In this document: in pieces, positions 43,347 through 56,932 of the stretch | How positions within the stretch are numbered: position 1 is the first letter of the stretch | Layout of the letters: every line of letters starts with the position of its first letter | From: Escherichia phage vB_EcoM_PTE-Eco09 | Sequence record: PQ306574.1 | Strand: one strand, 5' to 3' | Length of the DNA: 64,000 nt | The notes under the pieces: model-generated | What the model was told of the DNA's origin: nothing | Database searches by the model: none | Seen by the model: only the letters and a program-made list of their open reading frames with translations | Translations under genes and position numbers: made by a program

Positions 43347-43928
43347 TTGTGTGAGGTGTTTGTTGTGGCAAAAACAAAATTTTGGGATATCGAGACACAG
43401 AAAGCGATAAAAGGTAGATTCTATCATGTCGATGGAATATTATACCATTTAAAGGATTCTGTAGCTGCTGGATTCCGAAAAGAAGGGTCCATATACAAAA
43501 AAGGTGATGTGGTAAGGGTATGTCTCCATAAAGAAGGATATTTATACTTTACATTTTACAACAATGGTCATAAACTTAATCTGTTTGTACATAGAGTTGT
43601 CTGGTTTTTAGAGTATGGTACTCAGGTTGAACGAATAGATCACATAGACCAAGACAAAACTAACAATAGACCGTCAAACATGAGAGAAGCAACCGAACAG
43701 CAAAATCAGTTTAACGTCTCAAAGAAAAAGGCTTGCCATAGCAAATATAAAGGTGTATCATTATCACCAAGCAAGAAAAAGCCGTGGAAGGCGTATATTG
43801 TTATCAATCGAAAGAATATACATCTAGGATACTTTGAGACAGAAGTTGAGGCGGCTAAGGCTTATGACCGTGCAGCACATGAAATAGTTGGCGAGTATGC
43901 TTATTTAAATTTTCCAAAAAGAGGATGA
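43347..43928 (+). CDS. free-standing HNH homing endonuclease with C-terminal AP2-type DNA-binding domain
   Basis: HNH_3-like HRVVWFLEYG...ERIDHIDQDKTNNRPSNM; AP2-like YKGVSLSPSKKKPWKAYIVINRKNIHLGYFETEVEAAKAYDRAA. No in-frame ATG; start is TTG 43347 or GTG 43356/43365. Confidence 0.7.
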   Translation: MCEVFVVAKTKFWDIETQKAIKGRFYHVDGILYHLKDSVAAGFRKEGSIYKKGDVVRVCLHKEGYLYFTFYNNGHKLNLFVHRVVWFLEYGTQVERIDHIDQDKTNNRPSNMREATEQQNQFNVSKKKACHSKYKGVSLSPSKKKPWKAYIVINRKNIHLGYFETEVEAAKAYDRAAHEIVGEYAYLNFPKRG

Positions 43929-46217: not shown

Positions 46218-46898
46218 ATGATCAGAAACCGTCTTCCTCCAGATCCAGATATGCGAATTAATGCTAAATCTGTGTATATGTTATATTGCATGATGAAAGC
46301 TCATATGAACGGGCGTTATGATTGCGTAAAATACAATTGGAGGATGCGGTTGTCTGATGCCGCATTCAATAAACGCAGAGATAAGTATTATTTCGCAAAA
46401 TTAGCGGAAAAGTACAATCTAAGAGAATTATACTTCCTATTCCTAAGCAATCTGGTAGCTAATACCGATGCATGGGTAGGTGAAATCACCGATGTTGACG
46501 CATACGGGTTTTACATGGAGTACATCGGTAAAATCACTGATGCGGCAACACGATTTGACGATGACATTAAAAGTCTTGTATACTTCTCAGAGAAACGCGG
46601 GGTTACTCTTAAAGAGCTAATTACATATAATCCCGCAACCGAAACTAGCGGTATCTTTAAACTACTGCAAAATCGGATTATATCGTTTGAGTCGTTTATG
46701 TTGTTAGATAGCTTTCTAAATATAATCGACGAACACGACAAGGTAGCCAAAGACTTGATTTGGCAAACTTATAGTGTTAAAATGAAGGCGTACAAGAAAC
46801 TACTTGTTATTGACGCCGCAAAAGCAAGAGCATTATTTGTTAAAGTAGTTAAAGAGTGTAAAGAAATATCTCAATTAAAAGCCGAAACAAATAGTTGA
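46218..46898 (+). CDS. 59: helicase loader gp59
   Basis: 226 aa; SVYMLYCMMKAHMNGRYDCVKYNWRMRLSDAAFNKRRDKYYF and FLSNLVAN match remembered T4 gp59. Confidence 0.9.
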   Translation: MIRNRLPPDPDMRINAKSVYMLYCMMKAHMNGRYDCVKYNWRMRLSDAAFNKRRDKYYFAKLAEKYNLRELYFLFLSNLVANTDAWVGEITDVDAYGFYMEYIGKITDAATRFDDDIKSLVYFSEKRGVTLKELITYNPATETSGIFKLLQNRIISFESFMLLDSFLNIIDEHDKVAKDLIWQTYSVKMKAYKKLLVIDAAKARALFVKVVKECKEISQLKAETNS

Positions 46899-46958
46899 CA
46901 AGTAAATTTAAATCTGTATAATAGTCTAGTAAATTAATCAAAAGAAGGAATAGTGAAT

Positions 46959-47927
46959 ATGTTTAAACGCCAAGATTCTTCCAAACTGCAAGCTCAACTG
47001 GCCGCACTGAAAGGTGGCAACGGTTTCTCCAAAGAAGATCCGAAAGAGTGGAAGATTAAGACTGATGCAGCAGGTAACGGTGAAGCCCTGATTCGCTTCC
47101 TGCCGTCTAAGACAGAAGACGGTCTGCCGATTGTGAAACTGGTAAACCATTCCTTCAAAGTTAATGGCAAATGGTATTGGGAAAACTGCTCCAGCACCCA
47201 CGGTGATTTTGATTCTTGCCCTGTGTGCAAATATATTAACGAAAAAGACTTGTACAATACCGATAAAACCGAATGGCAACTGATTAAGCGTAAAGCGTCT
47301 TACTACGCAAACATTCTGGTACTGAAAGATCCTCAAGCACCAGAAAATGAAGGTAAGGTATTCAAATTCCGCTTCGGTCAGAAAATTTATGATAAGATCG
47401 TTGCAATGGTGAACGTGAATACCGATATGGGCGAAGTTCCGGTCGATGTAACTTGTGTGTTCTCTGGTGCTAACTTCCTCCTGAAAGCTAAGAAGGTTGA
47501 TAAACACCAGAACTATGATGATTCTCGTTTCATGCAGCAATCACAGCTTCCGAAAATTGAAGACGAAGCATATCAGAAATATCTGATGGAAAACATGGTT
47601 GATCTGAGTGAGATTGTAGCGCCTAGCCAGTTTAAACCGTTCGATGAACTGGAAACCAAATTTAAGAAAACTATGGGCGTTTCTATGGTAGCTGGTGCTG
47701 CGGCTTCCAGTGCTGCGGCAGCGATTAACAGCCAGCTTGACGATTTTGACGCACAGATGAATGCATTCGATTCTGGTATGACCGCAGCTAACACTGTAGT
47801 TGGTATTAACGCAGCTAGCACGGCGTTAGATTCTTCCGCTGATGACCTGATGGCATCTCTGGACCTGGGTGGCGGTACTTCCTCCGCTTCTGATCTGGAT
47901 GATCTTGACGCTCTGTTAGGGATGTAA
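46959..47927 (+). CDS. 32: single-stranded DNA-binding protein gp32
   Basis: MFKRQ...IRFLPSK...[17 protein letters not shown]...[12 protein letters not shown]; acidic C-terminal tail; long match to remembered T4 gp32. Confidence 0.95.
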
Positions 47928-47936
47928 TGAATTTTA

Positions 47937-47965
47937 CAGCCTCCCTCCGGGAGGCTTTTTTATTG
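47937..47965 (+). terminator. intrinsic terminator after gene 32
   Basis: AGCCTCCC-TCCG-GGAGGCT followed by TTTTTTATT. Confidence 0.7.
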
Positions 47966-47987
47966 CCTAAAATTTTATGAAAAGGTG

Positions 47988-48015
47988 TTGACATGCTTAT
48001 GTGGTAATGTATAAT
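47988..48015 (+). promoter_or_regulatory. sigma70-like early promoter
   Basis: TTGACA-16 nt-TATAAT, then CATCGAAACAATGGAGGA leader. Confidence 0.55.
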
Positions 48016-48045
48016 GCACACATCGAAACAATGGAGGATAAAAAT

Positions 48046-49260
48046 ATGTTAGTACGTCAAGCGCATGAAATTGAATGGACTAAGGAGAAACATAATTGTA
48101 GAGCGAAAAGCCCAACAGATTTTTATGGTAAAATTTTAGAAATATGTAAAACAGAAAATTTAGTTTTTGTCGGCTTTGTTGGGGAATGGGAAGGAAACAA
48201 AACAAAAATAAAACTTATCTGCGAACATGGTCATGAATGGATATGTTCGATAGATAAATTTGTAAGTAAAGGAACAAGATGTTCTCATAAACAATGTAAA
48301 GGTAAACGAATATCTAAAAAATTGTCTATATCCGAAACGGAATACAAAACGAGAATTTTAGAAATATGTGAAACTGAAAATCTAATTTTCTTAGGTTTTG
48401 TTGGTGAATGGAAAGGGTGTGATACTAAAATTCGCATAAAATGCAAATACGGTCATGAATGGGATGTATCTATATATAGCTTCACAAAAATGAATACCAG
48501 ATGCCCTACATGCGCAGGACAGAACAGGACAAAAGACGAATACAAAACGAGAATTTTAGAAATATGTGAAACTGAAAATATAATTTTCTTAGGTTTTGTT
48601 GGTGAATGGAAAGGATGCCGCACAAAAATAAAACTTAGCTGCAAACACGGTCATGAATGGATATCTTCCATATTATGTTTTGTGTATCAAAATACTCGCT
48701 GTCCTGTATGTGTTGGTAGATTGTCTATCGACGATAGAATGATACAGATTAATCAAGTTTGCAATTCTTTAGGTTATGTAATAATTAAGATCCACGAAGA
48801 ATGGAAAAACACAGAAACTAAAATTGATGTTAAATGTTTATGTGATTATATATGGACAACAACAATACATAGAGTCATACATGGGACTACAGGTTGCAGA
48901 AAGTGTGCTACACATGGATACAATACAAAAAAATCGGGGACTCTTTATATACAGAAATTAACCAACGATGATTCCTTTGTTGGTGTGAAATTTGGAATAA
49001 CAAACAGAGACACGAATGAACGAATGAAAAACCAATCATCAAAGTCTAAATTCGACCATGAGATCTTTTATGAATTGACTTTACAAGACGGTCAAAAGAT
49101 CTTAGAATTAGAGAACAAGATCAAGAAAGCGATGAAAGGTAAAACTTCCTATATCTCAAAAGAAGATATGCCGGATGGCTGGACCGAAACAGTAGCGCCG
49201 TCTGAATTGAGCACTATCATGTATATCGTAAAAACTTTTGAAAAAGAGTTGACAGCGTAA
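48046..49260 (+). CDS. protein with three tandem zinc-ribbon repeats and a C-terminal T5orf172/GIY-YIG-like domain
   Basis: Repeats FxGFVGEW.G..TKI...C..GHEW......F......RCP.C; C-terminal GTLYIQKLTNDDSFVGVKFGITNRDTNERM. Confidence 0.55.
   Translation: MLVRQAHEIEWTKEKHNCRAKSPTDFYGKILEICKTENLVFVGFVGEWEGNKTKIKLICEHGHEWICSIDKFVSKGTRCSHKQCKGKRISKKLSISETEYKTRILEICETENLIFLGFVGEWKGCDTKIRIKCKYGHEWDVSIYSFTKMNTRCPTCAGQNRTKDEYKTRILEICETENIIFLGFVGEWKGCRTKIKLSCKHGHEWISSILCFVYQNTRCPVCVGRLSIDDRMIQINQVCNSLGYVIIKIHEEWKNTETKIDVKCLCDYIWTTTIHRVIHGTTGCRKCATHGYNTKKSGTLYIQKLTNDDSFVGVKFGITNRDTNERMKNQSSKSKFDHEIFYELTLQDGQKILELENKIKKAMKGKTSYISKEDMPDGWTETVAPSELSTIMYIVKTFEKELTA
48340..48735 (+). repeat. 198-bp tandem duplication inside the 48046-49260 CDS
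   Basis: About 78 bp from 48340 and from 48538 are identical apart from one mismatch; a more diverged third unit lies upstream near 48121. Confidence 0.75.
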
Positions 49261-49276
49261 CGCAATAGTGTATAAT
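49249..49276 (+). promoter_or_regulatory. sigma70-like early promoter
   Basis: TTGACA-16 nt-TATAAT, then ATCGAAACAACGGAGGA. Confidence 0.55.
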
Positions 49277-49305
49277 GCACATATCGAAACAACGGAGGAT
49301 TAACA

Positions 49306-49635
49306 ATGTTTTTGAATGCCACCCTTTCCCAGAAAAGTGATAAAATCGAACTTCTGTATGTCATTGCTGATGTGGACGTACAACGAAGAAATATAGATTT
49401 AAAAATTCACAAATATTATACTATGAGCGAATATCATGAAATAGAGATCCCACATAGTGTGTATCCTGCATTATTGTTAGGAAAAGGAAATCTAAGTGAA
49501 TATTCTTTGAAAGTCATCAAAGATTCTAAATCAATGCTTGCTCATATGGAAAAAGATTTTCTTGATGAAGTTTCCGCGCTAGTTATTAAACTGAAAGAAG
49601 AAACAGCACCGCTTTTCATGGAACAAAAAGGTTGA
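49306..49635 (+). CDS. hypothetical protein
   Basis: 109-aa ORF. Confidence 0.45.
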   Translation: MFLNATLSQKSDKIELLYVIADVDVQRRNIDLKIHKYYTMSEYHEIEIPHSVYPALLLGKGNLSEYSLKVIKDSKSMLAHMEKDFLDEVSALVIKLKEETAPLFMEQKG

Positions 49636-49659
49636 CGCCGAACACAGATGATGTATAAT
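49632..49659 (+). promoter_or_regulatory. sigma70-like early promoter
   Basis: TTGACG-16 nt-TATAAT, then CATCGAAACAAAGAGAGGA. Confidence 0.55.
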
Positions 49660-49690
49660 ACAAACATCGAAACAAAGAGAGGACTATATT

Positions 49691-50020
49691 ATGTGGACAG
49701 TAGAAAAAATCGTTGACGAATCAACCGAAATTGTCTCGTGTGGCACTATTGAAGAATGTCTTAAAGCCGCTAACCGTGAATGTATTACGGTTTATGAATC
49801 CCGTCGCGGTGATGGTAGCTTGATTCAAAGTGATTATCGTTACACCGCACATAAAATTGTATTCCGTTTCTGGGAAAACGGTGTCAATGTCGGTGTCAGC
49901 TTACTGAAAATGTGGCGTGATTATTCCGAACGCTACTATGTTTCTCCTGATGATGGTAATGAATTTAAGACAGCAATCACAGAAGAAAATGTAAACGAAA
50001 ACTATTTCAAACTGATTTGA
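49691..50020 (+). CDS. hypothetical protein
   Basis: 109-aa ORF. Confidence 0.45.
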   Translation: MWTVEKIVDESTEIVSCGTIEECLKAANRECITVYESRRGDGSLIQSDYRYTAHKIVFRFWENGVNVGVSLLKMWRDYSERYYVSPDDGNEFKTAITEENVNENYFKLI

Positions 50021-50035
50021 TGGGAGATTTATATT

Positions 50036-50605
50036 ATGATTCAATGTGTATTTGCTATTGGTGACACTAAAATGTCAGATGAAAATTGGGCTTTTGGTTT
50101 TAAAGGCGGTTTACCGTGGGGGCGTCCAATTAAAAAGGACATGGAAAACTTTAAAATGCGCACTATGGGAGATGTTGATCTTGCGGCGGTTGTAATGGGA
50201 CGTAATACCTTTGAAAGTCTGCCTAAAGCACTGGAAGGTCGTCTTAATGTGGTTATTAGTACCGATGCCAGCAAGCCGACACCGAAAGCCAAAAACGGCG
50301 ACCAGCCTAATGTGTATACTGGAATTGAATTAAAGGATCTGTTAAAAGTCCTGGAGAAAACGCAAGGTTTGGTAAGTGTTATCGGTGGACCTTCCCTGAT
50401 TGAAAAAGCGGTTGACTTTGCGGATCGTATTGTGTTAACATATGTTCAACGAGCAGGAATTAATGATCCGTTCGAATATGATGTTGGTATCTCTAAGGAA
50501 ATGATTCAGGAATTATATTTTGACTTTGCAACAAAAGAAGAACATAATTACTTCCTTGATGATTACCTGATCAGCGAACAAATTTTAGAACGTAAGAAGG
50601 CGTAA
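50036..50605 (+). CDS. frd: dihydrofolate reductase
   Basis: 189 aa; GGLPWGRPIKKD, AVVMGRNTFESLP, VIGGPSLIEKA are DHFR motifs; position before td. Confidence 0.8.
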   Translation: MIQCVFAIGDTKMSDENWAFGFKGGLPWGRPIKKDMENFKMRTMGDVDLAAVVMGRNTFESLPKALEGRLNVVISTDASKPTPKAKNGDQPNVYTGIELKDLLKVLEKTQGLVSVIGGPSLIEKAVDFADRIVLTYVQRAGINDPFEYDVGISKEMIQELYFDFATKEEHNYFLDDYLISEQILERKKA

Positions 50606-50606
50606 C

Positions 50607-50699
50607 ATGAAAATTCTGACAGATTATGAGTGCAAACATTGTGGTGAATCTTTGATGTTTGCTGGTAGTCGGTGCTTACATTGCGGACGGGAACAATAA
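50607..50699 (+). CDS. tiny zinc-ribbon peptide
   Basis: 30 codons with CxxC...CxxC (YECKHCG...RCLHCG); TAATG overlaps on both sides. Confidence 0.3.
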   Translation: MKILTDYECKHCGESLMFAGSRCLHCGREQ

Positions 50700-50968
50700 T
50701 GAAAGTCGGTATTATTCAATTATGGACGGCTACCAGTGAAAACTACGCAGTAGCCGTAGATTATTACGGTTTACAATATCTCTATGATGAAGCGAGCGCA
50801 TCATGGCTTCCTGTGCAAGAAAATAGCGATATCTCAAGACCTGCTACTATATTCGACCGTGGCGTTGTCTTTATCGATATTGACGAGACAGTAGCAAAAC
50901 TGCGTAAGAAAGCAATCAACAAGAAAAAGGTGATGTGGGATGAAAGAATATTTGAAACTATTGCGTGA
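50699..50968 (+). CDS. hypothetical protein
   Basis: 89-aa ORF from ATG 50699; overlaps the td start. Confidence 0.4.
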   Translation: MKVGIIQLWTATSENYAVAVDYYGLQYLYDEASASWLPVQENSDISRPATIFDRGVVFIDIDETVAKLRKKAINKKKVMWDERIFETIA

Positions 50969-52160
50969 TGTTCTCGATAATGGCTGGCCTCGTGAAGATC
51001 GAACGGGGGTAGGTACGCTCTCTAAATTCGGCGCAGAGATGCGAATTGACTTAAGCAAGGGTTTCCCATTACTGACCACTAAAAAGATGGCTACAGCCTC
51101 TGTAATTGGCGAATTGCTATGGTTTATGGAGGGATCACTTGACCGCCGTCGCTTACAGGAAATTACACGCGGTAAGTTTGACGAAGAAGCCTTCGACATT
51201 TGGCGCGGCAACTGTCTTGATATGAAAGAAAAGAATCCTTTGCGATTCAATGGTTATAATGTCGGCAATATGTATGGTATGGCGTGGCGACGCAAACCGA
51301 TTCATCCACACGGTGAAATCAAAATTAAGCGCGTTAAGAGCAAATATACACATACATTTAAGCACCCGTGGGTAGAAGACTTTACGCCAACCAATGAAAC
51401 AGAAGACCGTTTATGTGCTATCTGGCGTGGTATGCGTTATGAAGAGTTTGATTATATTCTGGTAGCAGACCACTGGAAGACTCAATCTAATTTTGTTAAT
51501 GATGCATATTGCTTGTGGGGATTCCAGGAATGGGTAGATGATGGTTATTTCGGTTATCTGCTTGATAGTGATTATCTGGGTGGGGATATTATAGCACCGG
51601 ATACCACGATGTTTGTTAGTATGGACGTAGACACATCAAGCACTAAAGACGATGAAGAATATGTCTATCGCCCGAAGATTTGGGAAGACCAGTTACAAAA
51701 CGTGATCGAACAAATTAAAAACAATCCAACGGATCGCCGGATCATTATTGACTCATGGAACGTACAAGGAACACATAATGCTGTATTAGGTGTATGTCAT
51801 CCTTTCGTGCAATTCTACGTCAATGAAGGTAAACTGTCTTGTATGTGGTTTCAGCGAAGCGTAGACAGCTTTTTAGGCTTGCCCTTTAACGTCGCCAGCT
51901 ATGCGCTGTTAACTCACATCATAGCGAAAATGTGTGATCTTGAGGTAGGAGAACTGATTTTCTCTGGTGGAGATACTCACATTTACAAAAACCATTTTGA
52001 TCAAGTCATGGAACAGTTAAGCCGTGTTCCGTTTGATAAACCAACAATTGAGTTGCCGGAATTTAAATCTTTAGATGAGGTATTGACAAAGACTCCGAAA
52101 GACTTTAAAATTCACAACTATCAAAGCCATCCAGCGATCACCGCTCAAATGGCAGTATAA
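50940..52160 (+). CDS. td: thymidylate synthase with a large internal insertion
   Basis: TS motifs DRTGVGT, YGMAWRR, DRRIIIDSWN, LGVCHPFVQFYV, LSCMWFQRSVDSFLGLPFNVASYALLT; 406 aa with extra residues between WRR and DQL. Confidence 0.9.
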   Translation: MKEYLKLLRDVLDNGWPREDRTGVGTLSKFGAEMRIDLSKGFPLLTTKKMATASVIGELLWFMEGSLDRRRLQEITRGKFDEEAFDIWRGNCLDMKEKNPLRFNGYNVGNMYGMAWRRKPIHPHGEIKIKRVKSKYTHTFKHPWVEDFTPTNETEDRLCAIWRGMRYEEFDYILVADHWKTQSNFVNDAYCLWGFQEWVDDGYFGYLLDSDYLGGDIIAPDTTMFVSMDVDTSSTKDDEEYVYRPKIWEDQLQNVIEQIKNNPTDRRIIIDSWNVQGTHNAVLGVCHPFVQFYVNEGKLSCMWFQRSVDSFLGLPFNVASYALLTHIIAKMCDLEVGELIFSGGDTHIYKNHFDQVMEQLSRVPFDKPTIELPEFKSLDEVLTKTPKDFKIHNYQSHPAITAQMAV

Positions 52161-55117: not shown

Positions 55118-55765
55118 ATGAACTTACAAAAACTACATGACGCAATCATAGAAAAAGCAAAGACGAGAGGAACCGTTGAAGGGTATAAGGAAACACATCA
55201 TATTTTACCGCGATCTATGGGTGGCGGTGATGAAGTTGATAACCTGATTGAGTTGACAGCAAAAGAACATTTCGTGATTCATCATCTGCTAGCAAAAATT
55301 CATGGTGGACCTATGGCACAAGCATTTGGTATGATGTGTTTAGCAAAAAATGCGAAGACCAATAAAAGAGATTATATTGTTTCGTCTAGGGTATATGAAC
55401 AAGCTAGGGTACTTATCTCTGAACAAAGAAAGGGCAAACCTATGAAAGAAGAAACGCGAAGAAAGATTAGCGAATCTTCGAAAGGTGTGTTGAAATCAGA
55501 AGAGACAAAAGCTAAAATGCGTAAGCCAAAAACAAAGGAGCACGCGTTAAACATTTCAAAAGCTAGAATGGGCAGTAAAAATCCTATGTTTGGGAAACCA
55601 TCGCCAACTAAAGGAATACCACATAGTGAGGAAATGAGAAAGCTGATTGCACAAAGGACAAAGGAAGCAACAATGGCAGATCCTTGTCCGCATTGCGGTA
55701 AAATTACCAATAAAGGCAATTCTCTACGATGGCACTTTGATAACTGTAAAATGAGGAATATGTGA
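55118..55765 (+). CDS. mobE: HNH homing endonuclease with NUMOD3-like repeats (MobE-like)
   Basis: HNH motif HHILPRSMGGGDEVDNLIELTAKEHFVIHH; repeated ...R.KIS.S.KG... NUMOD3-like units; located between nrdA and nrdB like T4 mobE. Confidence 0.75.
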   Translation: MNLQKLHDAIIEKAKTRGTVEGYKETHHILPRSMGGGDEVDNLIELTAKEHFVIHHLLAKIHGGPMAQAFGMMCLAKNAKTNKRDYIVSSRVYEQARVLISEQRKGKPMKEETRRKISESSKGVLKSEETKAKMRKPKTKEHALNISKARMGSKNPMFGKPSPTKGIPHSEEMRKLIAQRTKEATMADPCPHCGKITNKGNSLRWHFDNCKMRNM

Positions 55766-56932
55766 ATGGGAAATACGGTATTTAATCGTGAACACGTTGA
55801 TATTATGAATGAACCGATGTTTCTGGGCAGCGGTTTAGGTATCGCTCGTTATGACATTCAGCGTCATCAAGTATTTGAAGAATTAATTGAAAAATCTCTG
55901 TCATTTTTTTGGCGCCCCGAAGAAATTTCACTTGCAACCGACCGCATTCAATATCTTAATATGGGTGACGTTGAAAAGCGTTTCTTTACTGAAAACTTGA
56001 AGTATCAGACATTACTTGATTCTATTCAAGGTCGCGCACCGTCCGCAGCATTTGGTCCAATTGTATCTGATCCAACTCTCGATACATGGTTGCAAACATG
56101 GACATTCAGCGAAACGATTCATAGCCGAAGCTATACACACATTATGCGTAACTGTTTCATTGATCCGGCTAGTGAGTTCGACCAGATCATCGATAACCCT
56201 GCTATCATGAAGCGAGCGGAATCTATCGGGAAATATTATGATGATGTTCTTTATTGGATTCGTAAGTATGAGAATGCAAAAGAAGATCTCCGCTATTGGG
56301 AAGAACGAGACGACCAGACAGCATTAGATGATGCAAGAAGATTTTTTGAAGATACAAAACGAGATCTGATGGCTTCGATTTATCTGTGTGCACACTGCGT
56401 AAATGCACTGGAAGCAATCCGTTTTTATGTGTCCTTTGCATGTACTTTCAGCTTTGCCGAACGTGGTTTACTGGAAGGTAACGCGAAGATCATGAAATTT
56501 ATTGCGCGTGATGAACAACTTCACTTAAAAGGAACACAATACATTATTCGTCAATGGCAAACGGGGGTTGATGGTGATGAGTGGAAACAGATTGCGGAAG
56601 AACTTGAAGGCGAAGCAACGAAAATCTTTCTGGATGTTGTCGAGCAAGAAAAAGAATGGGTAGACCACCTATTCGCAATGGGGGCAATTCCTAACCTGTC
56701 ACCGGAAATTCTGAAAACCTATGTAGAATACCTGGCAGATTCCCGTATGCGTGCTGCCGGACTGAAAAGCCCGTTTAGTGTTCGTCGTCATCCGTTACCG
56801 TGGATGCGTAAATGGTTGAACTCTGACGAAGTACAGAATGCAGCGCAGGAAGTAGAGATTATGTATCTGGTATCTCAGGTTAATACCGATTTAACAGACG
56901 ACGACTACAACCGATTCGGGAAATATCTATGA
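55766..56932 (+). CDS. nrdB: ribonucleotide reductase small subunit NrdB (uninterrupted)
   Basis: 388 aa; di-iron ligand regions (SETIHSRSYTHI, EAIRFYVSF, DEQLHLKG); continuous ORF. Confidence 0.85.
   Translation: MGNTVFNREHVDIMNEPMFLGSGLGIARYDIQRHQVFEELIEKSLSFFWRPEEISLATDRIQYLNMGDVEKRFFTENLKYQTLLDSIQGRAPSAAFGPIVSDPTLDTWLQTWTFSETIHSRSYTHIMRNCFIDPASEFDQIIDNPAIMKRAESIGKYYDDVLYWIRKYENAKEDLRYWEERDDQTALDDARRFFEDTKRDLMASIYLCAHCVNALEAIRFYVSFACTFSFAERGLLEGNAKIMKFIARDEQLHLKGTQYIIRQWQTGVDGDEWKQIAEELEGEATKIFLDVVEQEKEWVDHLFAMGAIPNLSPEILKTYVEYLADSRMRAAGLKSPFSVRRHPLPWMRKWLNSDEVQNAAQEVEIMYLVSQVNTDLTDDDYNRFGKYL

Follow-up and report, generated by a model that had tools for sequence, protein, structure and literature searches.

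A CapR zinc-module array with a T5orf172-like C-terminus: a putative homing endonuclease gene beside gene 32 of a Krischvirus coliphage

Putative homing endonucleases of the T5orf172 type that carry repeated CapR/DUF723/DUF4379 zinc fingers, arranged as 'beads on a string', were described by Barth et al. 2023 (PMC10448857). Their genes contain degenerate intragenic repeats, with an in-frame repeat-mediated deletion in ICP1 gp174 and a duplication in phage Helene (six repeats); homing is likewise putative for the ICP1 members, one T5orf172 nuclease is Glu-dependent, and T4 itself has no T5orf172 genes (PMC10448857). The CapR protein of PLE binds DNA through its conserved cysteines, and Cys-to-Ser changes abolish this binding (PMC8096241). 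Among the T4 endonucleases, SegG adjoins gene 32 and cuts gene 32 (PMC2988022), while PeSL elements mediate gene shuffling in RB49 and phi1, according to Arbiol et al. 2010 (PMC2839356). Here we describe a gene at 48046..49260 in a stretch of 64,000 nucleotides (nt) of Escherichia phage vB_EcoM_PTE-Eco09 (PQ306574.1), which as a whole is referred to as the window. Because repeated CapR/T5orf172 endonucleases with intragenic recombination were described by Barth et al. 2023, the gene is of an already known kind and belongs to their class.

The source of the window is a Krischvirus (RB49-like, T4-type) coliphage; over positions 46900-50700 the identity is 99.7% with Escherichia phage FL04 and 96.6% with FL37. 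The coding sequence (48046..49260, plus strand) encodes 404 amino acids (aa) and is located between gene 32 (46953..47927) and frd (50036..50605). We consider it likely that this is a free-standing homing-endonuclease-type gene of the CapR/T5orf172 class within a promoter-flanked cassette, whose product would bind DNA with its module array and cleave it in the manner of GIY-YIG enzymes, and which would spread by recombination.

Make-up of the 404-aa protein

The start codon is the ATG at 48046, which has GGAGGA (48033-48038) 8 nt upstream and is identical to the start annotated in FL04. A longer version starting from GTG at 48001 was ruled out because this codon lies inside the promoter, between the -35 and -10 hexamers. 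The protein is built up of a leader of about 24 aa, four modules of about 66 aa and a C-terminal domain of 110 aa, and matches PHROG 681 'endonuclease' at 7e-92. Searching NCBIfam yielded nothing meaningful, PADLOC gave no match to a defence family, and no paralog was found within the window.

The zinc-ribbon repeats that a first-pass annotation had read from the sequence, and had proposed to check by searches with hidden Markov models (HMMs), are confirmed by such searches: CapR (PF21817) matches in four stretches with 108.3 bits (cut-off 24.2, E 2e-31) and DUF4379 (PF14311, 'probable treble clef zinc finger') with 30.8 bits (cut-off 24.5). Three tandem modules had been counted, and the full motif FxGFVGEW...C..GHEW...RC..C is indeed present three times (aa 25-91, 99-164 and 165-230); a degenerate fourth module had been overlooked. 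All four are encoded on the plus strand and are recovered both as Pfam stretches and with a module HMM. The positions and zinc ligands of the first three are 48118..48318 for module 1 (aa 25-91; C59, H63, C78-x4-C83), 48340..48537 for module 2 (aa 99-164; C133, H137, C153-x2-C156) and 48538..48735 for module 3 (aa 165-230; C199, H203, C219-x2-C222). Module 4 (48736..48933; aa 231-296), the fourth Pfam stretch, has a degenerate scaffold with CxC (C264/C266) and C284-x2-C287.

For module 2 an AlphaFold model was obtained from a 63-sequence alignment (pLDDT 87), in which a helix is followed by three strands, a short helix and another helix. The C-terminal CxxC is kept in 182 of 188 family modules, most of which also have an upstream C-x(1-3)-[H/C], typically 18-23 residues before the CxxC. 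Sequence and profile searches of the PDB with the module returned just a weak hit, to a DUF4379 mitoribosomal assembly factor (E 0.13). By analogy with PLE CapR, the member of the module family for which experimental proof exists, the modules of the window protein may be expected to bind DNA.

The C-terminal part (48934..49257, plus strand; aa 297-404) is a T5orf172/MUG113-like domain with a GIY-YIG fold and conserved Y301, K315-F316-G317, R326, E356 and G378-x-T380-E381-T382; its first residues include the motif GTLYIQKL...VKFGITN...ERM (aa 298-327). With the isolated domain as query, the scores are 18.7 bits for T5orf172 (PF10544; cut-off 20) and 17.5 bits for MUG113 (PF13455; cut-off 22.3), both models being part of the GIY-YIG clan; with the full-length protein, MUG113 is the sole nuclease-type Pfam match (E 0.022). 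When 38 aligned C-terminal domains of relatives are considered, T5orf172 matches 14 and MUG113 18 of them, at a best E of 1.3e-9. The GIY-YIG model itself (PF01541) does not match the window protein and matches two of the 38 relatives, weakly.

Structure prediction yields a model of high confidence (pLDDT 96.6, pTM 0.88) with a beta-beta-alpha-beta-alpha-alpha topology, which includes the three-stranded antiparallel sheet, the flanking helices and the beta-beta-alpha-beta-alpha order of the GIY-YIG superfamily. Its best fold matches in the PDB are GIY-YIG nucleases (HIGLE/Slx1), and in BFVD it matches, with a probability of 1.0, phage proteins named CapR homology, GIY-YIG, T5 Orf172 and homing endonuclease. 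Sequence and profile searches of the PDB with the domain gave chance matches to designed repeat proteins only. The T5orf172/GIY-YIG-like C-terminus noticed in the first-pass annotation is supported by the matches of relatives, the model and the fold matches, with a profile score that stays below threshold on the window protein itself.

Conservation of the putative catalytic positions is nearly complete among 81 relatives: R326 and E381 are present in all 81, Y301 in 80, and K315, G317 and E356 in 79 each; T380 is conserved as well. We conclude that the C-terminal domain is probably a divergent T5orf172-type GIY-YIG fold, and probably capable of catalysis.

Allelic variation, internal repeat and promoter cassettes

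The position between gene 32 and frd, further referred to as the slot, is occupied in 19 and empty in 17 of the 36 distinct relatives listed. As is characteristic of the class, the gene is thus variably present near essential genes, with gene 32, frd and td as neighbours. At the identical position the window allele is replaced by alleles with an identity of 38-49% to its protein: RB49 has a version of 485 aa (5 modules), GEC-3S, Makalu_001 and Skers one of 392 aa (4 modules), kaaroe one of 414 aa (4 modules), FL38 one of 460 aa (5 modules) and JEP8 one of 541 aa (6 modules). Three metagenomic alleles (2, 3 and 5 modules) occur at the same position, with synteny confirmed. The comparison of copy number among related phages that had been suggested for this locus thus reveals a range of two to six modules among slot alleles.

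All slot alleles have a 3' segment of about 210 nt in common (49051..49260, plus strand; about 95% DNA identity), as seen in a profile of 30-nt bins against 8 alleles and in the protein tails. Just upstream of about 49051 the identity between alleles is 50-70%, and in the arrays about 40%. The conserved tail is shared by 35 database alleles, whose 132 modules form 87 clusters at an identity of at least 75%. Related alleles can differ by whole modules ([3,1] versus [3,1,7,1]; [14,4] versus [14,4,4]; [12,13] versus [12,32,33,13]), and one module type forms a series of alleles with 3, 4, 5 and 6 modules. Variation within this recently amplified series is concentrated at four sites, namely the loop that precedes strand 2, the zinc knuckle, the short helix that follows strand 3, and the helix at the C-terminus, which makes these positions candidates for determining specificity.

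The allele of FL04 (L001, 1648..2862) differs from that of the window by 7 nt in 6 codons, all nonsynonymous (Q159K, R161K, I179L, C211H, H290Y and K361E). Through its ATA codon for I179 (48580-48582) the window allele also contains a TATAAT at 48579-48584, which is absent from FL04.

In total 119 homologs were found for the window protein. Together with the latter, 23, 24, 34, 28, 10 and 1 of these 120 sequences contain one to six modules, respectively, as counted with an HMM trained on this family, which likely undercounts modules in distant members. Their layout is an N-terminus of variable length (about 22 aa in close relatives), the modules and, for most, a C-terminal domain of about 105-115 aa. 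Other ends were also observed on a few CapR arrays, for instance PF10881 in P0093 and a PD-(D/E)xK-looking tail in P0079, and P0099 (505 aa, 5 modules) has no C-terminal domain; this pattern suggests that C-terminal domains are swapped around the same type of array. With tblastn, relatives were detected in 621 phage records, mainly from phages of Escherichia, Vibrio (including ICP1 ORF174), Salmonella, Klebsiella and Aeromonas.

Within the array, a segment of module 2 (helix 1 and strand 1; 48340..48416, plus strand) recurs in module 3 (48538..48614, plus strand). The first-pass annotation had placed repeats of about 78 identical nt at 48340 and 48538: the 198-nt spacing is correct, and the identity amounts to 76 of 77 nt. 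In FL04 and FL37 the same pair of segments is identical at 77/77 positions. The other 121 nt of the 198-nt unit match at 62 positions (51%) between modules 2 and 3. The 77-nt segment contains one nonsynonymous difference, and none of its 24 codons for the same amino acid differs synonymously; synonymous differences are found in 11 of 21 such codons in the rest of the unit against 1 of 25 in the 5' 26-codon part (Fisher p = 4e-4). The array was picked up by a direct-repeat search of the window and was not listed by Tandem Repeats Finder, because its units are too divergent overall.

An identical stretch next to a remainder that is 51% identical and synonymously diverged indicates a short gene-conversion patch rather than duplication of a whole unit; of the two origins proposed earlier, recent duplication or gene conversion, the sequence comparison thus points to the latter (0/24 against 11/21 synonymous differences). 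Two nearly identical 77-nt stretches at 198-nt spacing might also result from an assembly or duplication artefact, or from a plain recent tandem duplication, but we regard this as very improbable. The repeat is not an assembly artefact, because the same segments and the in-frame four-module structure are found in the independently deposited FL04 and FL37, and the identical stretch of just 77 nt is below the usual sequencing read length. A recent duplication of the unit would moreover predict otherwise for the remaining 121 nt, with its 51% identity and 11/21 synonymous differences. A mosaic of the same kind occurs independently in the six-module allele of JEP8: between its third and sixth modules the identity is 97% over the 5' part and 60% over the 3' part. 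Modules 1-3 of the window allele share 52-75% identity with one another, as do the modules within JEP8, and between different alleles the average is about 34%.

The gene is bracketed by two promoter cassettes, which form direct repeats of 82 nt that are 76% identical and 1261 nt apart. The left copy (47961..48042, plus strand), recovered by the direct-repeat search and a promoter scan, contains a -35 TTGACA (47988-47993), a -10 TATAAT (48010-48015) and the Shine-Dalgarno sequence GGAGGA (48033-48038). The right copy (49222..49303, plus strand) lies inside the 3' end of the coding sequence, with its -35 at 49249-49254, its -10 at 49271-49276 and its Shine-Dalgarno sequence at 49294-49299, and drives the next open reading frame (ORF), 49306..49635. 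Both promoters, the left one at 47988-48015 and the right one at 49249-49276, match the sigma-70 consensus at 12/12 positions, and downstream of each there is a GGAGGA and then an ATG. As had been noted beforehand, the next early promoter overlaps the 3' end of the gene: its TTGACA, 16-nt spacer and TATAAT (49249-49276) span the stop codon (49258-49260). Gene 32, the endonuclease gene and the two 109-aa ORFs downstream each have a near-consensus promoter of their own (46895, 47988, 49249 and 49632).

After gene 32 a terminator scan identified an intrinsic-terminator hairpin, AGCCTCCCTCCGGGAGGCT, followed by a T-run (47938..47956, plus strand), which is the stem-loop of the left PeSL-type cassette and is conserved in the empty-site phage. 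The same scan found no terminator-like hairpin at the right cassette. No hairpin that sequesters the ribosome-binding site was found in the leader of the endonuclease gene (z 0.67) or in that of the next gene (z 0.59). Both cassettes have the consensus sigma-70 promoter, the AT-rich upstream part and the end with Shine-Dalgarno sequence and start codon that are typical of PeSL promoters. The flanking cassettes fit PeSL elements, though the right copy has no stem-loop.

In the gene-less OZ035808, gene 32 and its terminator are followed by a single promoter cassette and then directly by the counterpart of ORF 49306..49635. This cassette is chimeric, being left-like through the -35 and the spacer and right-like after the -10, as is expected from recombination between the two copies. 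Filled and empty sites differ by the cassette duplication only, and this comparison did not identify a target site.

ORF 49306..49635 (plus strand; 109 aa, no Pfam match) is itself a variable promoter-flanked cassette. It varies independently and is absent from 6 of 9 relative loci that carry the endonuclease gene; it is present in the sole gene-less locus viewed directly (RB49_OZ), and to judge from query coverage it is probably also present in the other gene-less relatives. It may be an alternative occupant of the locus or the target of some alleles.

Homing and its alternatives

The reading we favour, a homing-type cassette, may be put together as follows. The gene would be expressed early, with its own consensus sigma-70 promoter driving transcription and an unstructured leader providing a strong Shine-Dalgarno sequence for translation. 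Four treble-clef-like zinc modules, as 'beads on a string', would jointly bind an extended DNA site, after which the GIY-YIG-fold domain (Y301, R326, E356) would nick or cut nearby DNA of co-infecting relatives that lack this allele. Recombination-dependent repair could then copy the gene, with homology provided by the promoter cassette on the left and by the shared 3' end of about 210 nt with its promoter on the right; recombination between the cassettes alone would presumably be enough to insert or delete it as well. The array changes through gene conversion within the gene and through the duplication and loss of modules, events that are visible in the alleles, and this might retune target specificity.

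Several observations weigh against homing. No Pfam nuclease model reaches its gathering score on the window protein, and hhalign of the domain profile against the catalytic domain of I-TevI (sequence verified against 1mk0/1ln0) gave no significant alignment (probability 0.7%). The GIY-YIG catalytic constellation consists of Tyr (GIY), Tyr (YIG), Arg, Glu and Asn. At the position of the second Tyr the window protein has F316, as do 68 of 81 relatives (Tyr in 6), and no equivalent was assigned to the conserved Asn, E381 and T380 being conserved instead. Free-standing endonuclease genes of T4 are not transcribed early (PMC2988022), whereas the window gene has an early promoter. Furthermore, promoter-cassette recombination could explain insertion and deletion entirely, with no need for nuclease-driven homing, and since CapR acts as a repressor, the protein might have a regulatory role by analogy.

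It might accordingly be argued that the protein is a domesticated, sequence-specific DNA-binding regulator of phage or host promoters, a CapR-like repressor or an I-TevI-like autorepressor, whose C-terminal domain has lost the ability to cut DNA. The founding member of the module family, CapR, indeed represses transcription by binding a promoter (PMC8096241), and the early promoter, the sub-threshold nuclease scores and the Phe in place of the second Tyr would all agree with such a role. Nonetheless, we deem it unlikely: the putative catalytic Y, R and E are kept in distant relatives, including those above the T5orf172 threshold, absence from about half of the close relatives and replacement by highly divergent alleles are atypical for a fixed regulator, and the window protein retains a C-terminal domain that CapR does not have. 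Another explanation is that the gene is a passive passenger of PeSL cassette recombination (excision and insertion as a mini-circle), and that the nuclease, if active, does not promote its own homing but serves competition or exclusion between phages, for instance through cleavage of rival genomes or satellites like Odn of ICP1. The 82-nt direct repeats bracket the gene exactly, the empty site is a chimera of both copies, ORF 49306..49635 next to it shows the same kind of independent variation, PeSL shuffling is known from RB49 and phi1 (PMC2839356), and Odn is a precedent for a T5orf172 nuclease that acts against a parasite (PMC10448857). This leaves unexplained the presence of 35 or more divergent alleles from one nuclease family in a single slot and the conservation of the catalytic residues, and PADLOC provides no defence-family match. 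We rate a passenger as quite improbable, although it overlaps with a homing-type cassette and does not exclude it.

A more far-reaching idea is that the slot represents a naturally occurring collection of modular arrays for DNA recognition, in which 87 module types, spread over at least 35 alleles, are joined to the same catalytic end. Each module of about 66 aa would recognise a short DNA sequence of fixed extent by means of the few hypervariable positions named above. Alleles would acquire new targets when modules are duplicated, lost or converted, as part of an arms race with one another or with the alternative cassette of ORF 49306..49635. To us this is rather a long shot; if true, it would imply a decipherable 'beads-on-a-string' recognition code, possibly of use in programmable nucleases.

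Neighbouring genes and comparison with known systems

The genes around the slot include gene 59 (46218..46898) upstream of gene 32, and downstream two unrelated 109-aa ORFs (49306..49635 and 49691..50020), frd and td (50940..52160, plus strand). The thymidylate synthase encoded by the latter has 406 aa and matches Pfam in two stretches, with its C-terminal 157 aa on model positions 110-266; the split match implies an insertion of about 120-140 aa compared to canonical ThyA, and this insertion is conserved in Krischvirus (td is about 1233 nt in relatives). In some Krischvirus genomes, but not in the window, an extra HNH_3 endonuclease gene is present between genes 59 and 32 (L013, 761-1357; L009 of Skers, 1-239), which is the position of segG in T4.

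Over 22 kb the identity between the window and FL37 is about 99%, apart from three places. It is 80-95% from 49650 to about 51650, a region that covers the second 109-aa ORF, frd and also the first part of td. This drop is found about 390 nt downstream of the endonuclease gene, at a promoter matching 11/12 consensus positions (49632-49659), and therefore marks a recombination boundary one gene downstream. Further upstream, a 193-aa ORF (43347..43928, plus strand) matches HNH_3 (E 1.6e-12) and AP2 (E 3.6e-8) and adjoins a 1246-aa minus-strand ORF; because its segment of about 600 bp is missing from the 99%-identical FL37, it is probably another free-standing homing endonuclease gene. FL37 also lacks a 215-aa ORF (55118..55765, plus strand) that matches NUMOD3 (E 2.7e-9) and contains an HNH-like motif; it lies directly upstream of the nrdB-like 55766..56932, where T4 has mobE. 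The comparison with FL37 agrees with earlier findings that nuclease genes occur where regions of genetic exchange begin or end (PMC10448857).

These results extend the CapR/T5orf172 endonuclease class to T4-type coliphages of the genus Krischvirus, in which dozens of alleles, differing mainly in the number and sequence of their DNA-binding modules, are found at one promoter-bracketed slot beside an essential gene. Such an allelic series at a single PeSL-bracketed slot with a common 3' end appears to be undescribed in the searchable literature. It is a handy natural system for studying target choice by zinc arrays and the influence of selfish nucleases and promoter cassettes on recombination boundaries in phage genomes. 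The 'hypothetical protein' of FL04 and FL37 can be renamed putative CapR-domain GIY-YIG-like (T5orf172-type) endonuclease.

In Seg- and I-TevI-type enzymes the GIY-YIG domain is N-terminal. The window protein has the reversed order, with a C-terminal nuclease-like domain, and PF01541 does not match; on both grounds a T4 Seg-type identity was rejected. Synteny with T4 segG was rejected as well, since segG lies between genes 59 and 32 and the window gene between 32 and frd. Nonetheless, the locus resembles the Seg family, and SegG in particular, in having a free-standing endonuclease gene with a GIY-YIG-superfamily fold beside gene 32, the coding region of which contains the promoter of the gene downstream, whereas its own promoter is early and those of T4 endonucleases are middle or late (PMC2988022).

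With PLE CapR, the repressor of Vibrio cholerae satellites, the protein shares the zinc-module family PF21817, but CapR is a 15.5-kDa repressor that has no nuclease domain, against four modules and a nuclease-like domain here. The cassettes resemble the PeSL elements of RB49 and phi1 in their consensus sigma-70 promoter, AT-rich upstream part and end with Shine-Dalgarno sequence and start codon, and in flanking variable genes whose insertion or deletion is explained by recombination between copies. They differ in that the right copy has no stem-loop and lies within coding sequence, and in that the locus belongs to the conserved replication module instead of a hyperplastic region; the gene 32-frd locus is not mentioned in the parts of PMC2839356 consulted.

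The ICP1-type CapR/T5orf172 enzymes (PMC8096241, PMC10448857) are likewise among the closest known systems: they too combine N-terminal zinc-module repeats with a C-terminal T5orf172-like domain, are variably present in close relatives next to essential genes, and contain degenerate intragenic repeats through which recombination alters the number of modules. ICP1 ORF174 is a detectable homolog of the window protein (24% identity). Unlike these, the window gene resides in a T4-type Krischvirus coliphage and has a divergent C-terminal subfamily just under the Pfam thresholds, and in Krischvirus a single locus holds a long series of alleles with two to six modules, a common 3' end of about 210 nt and PeSL-type bracketing.

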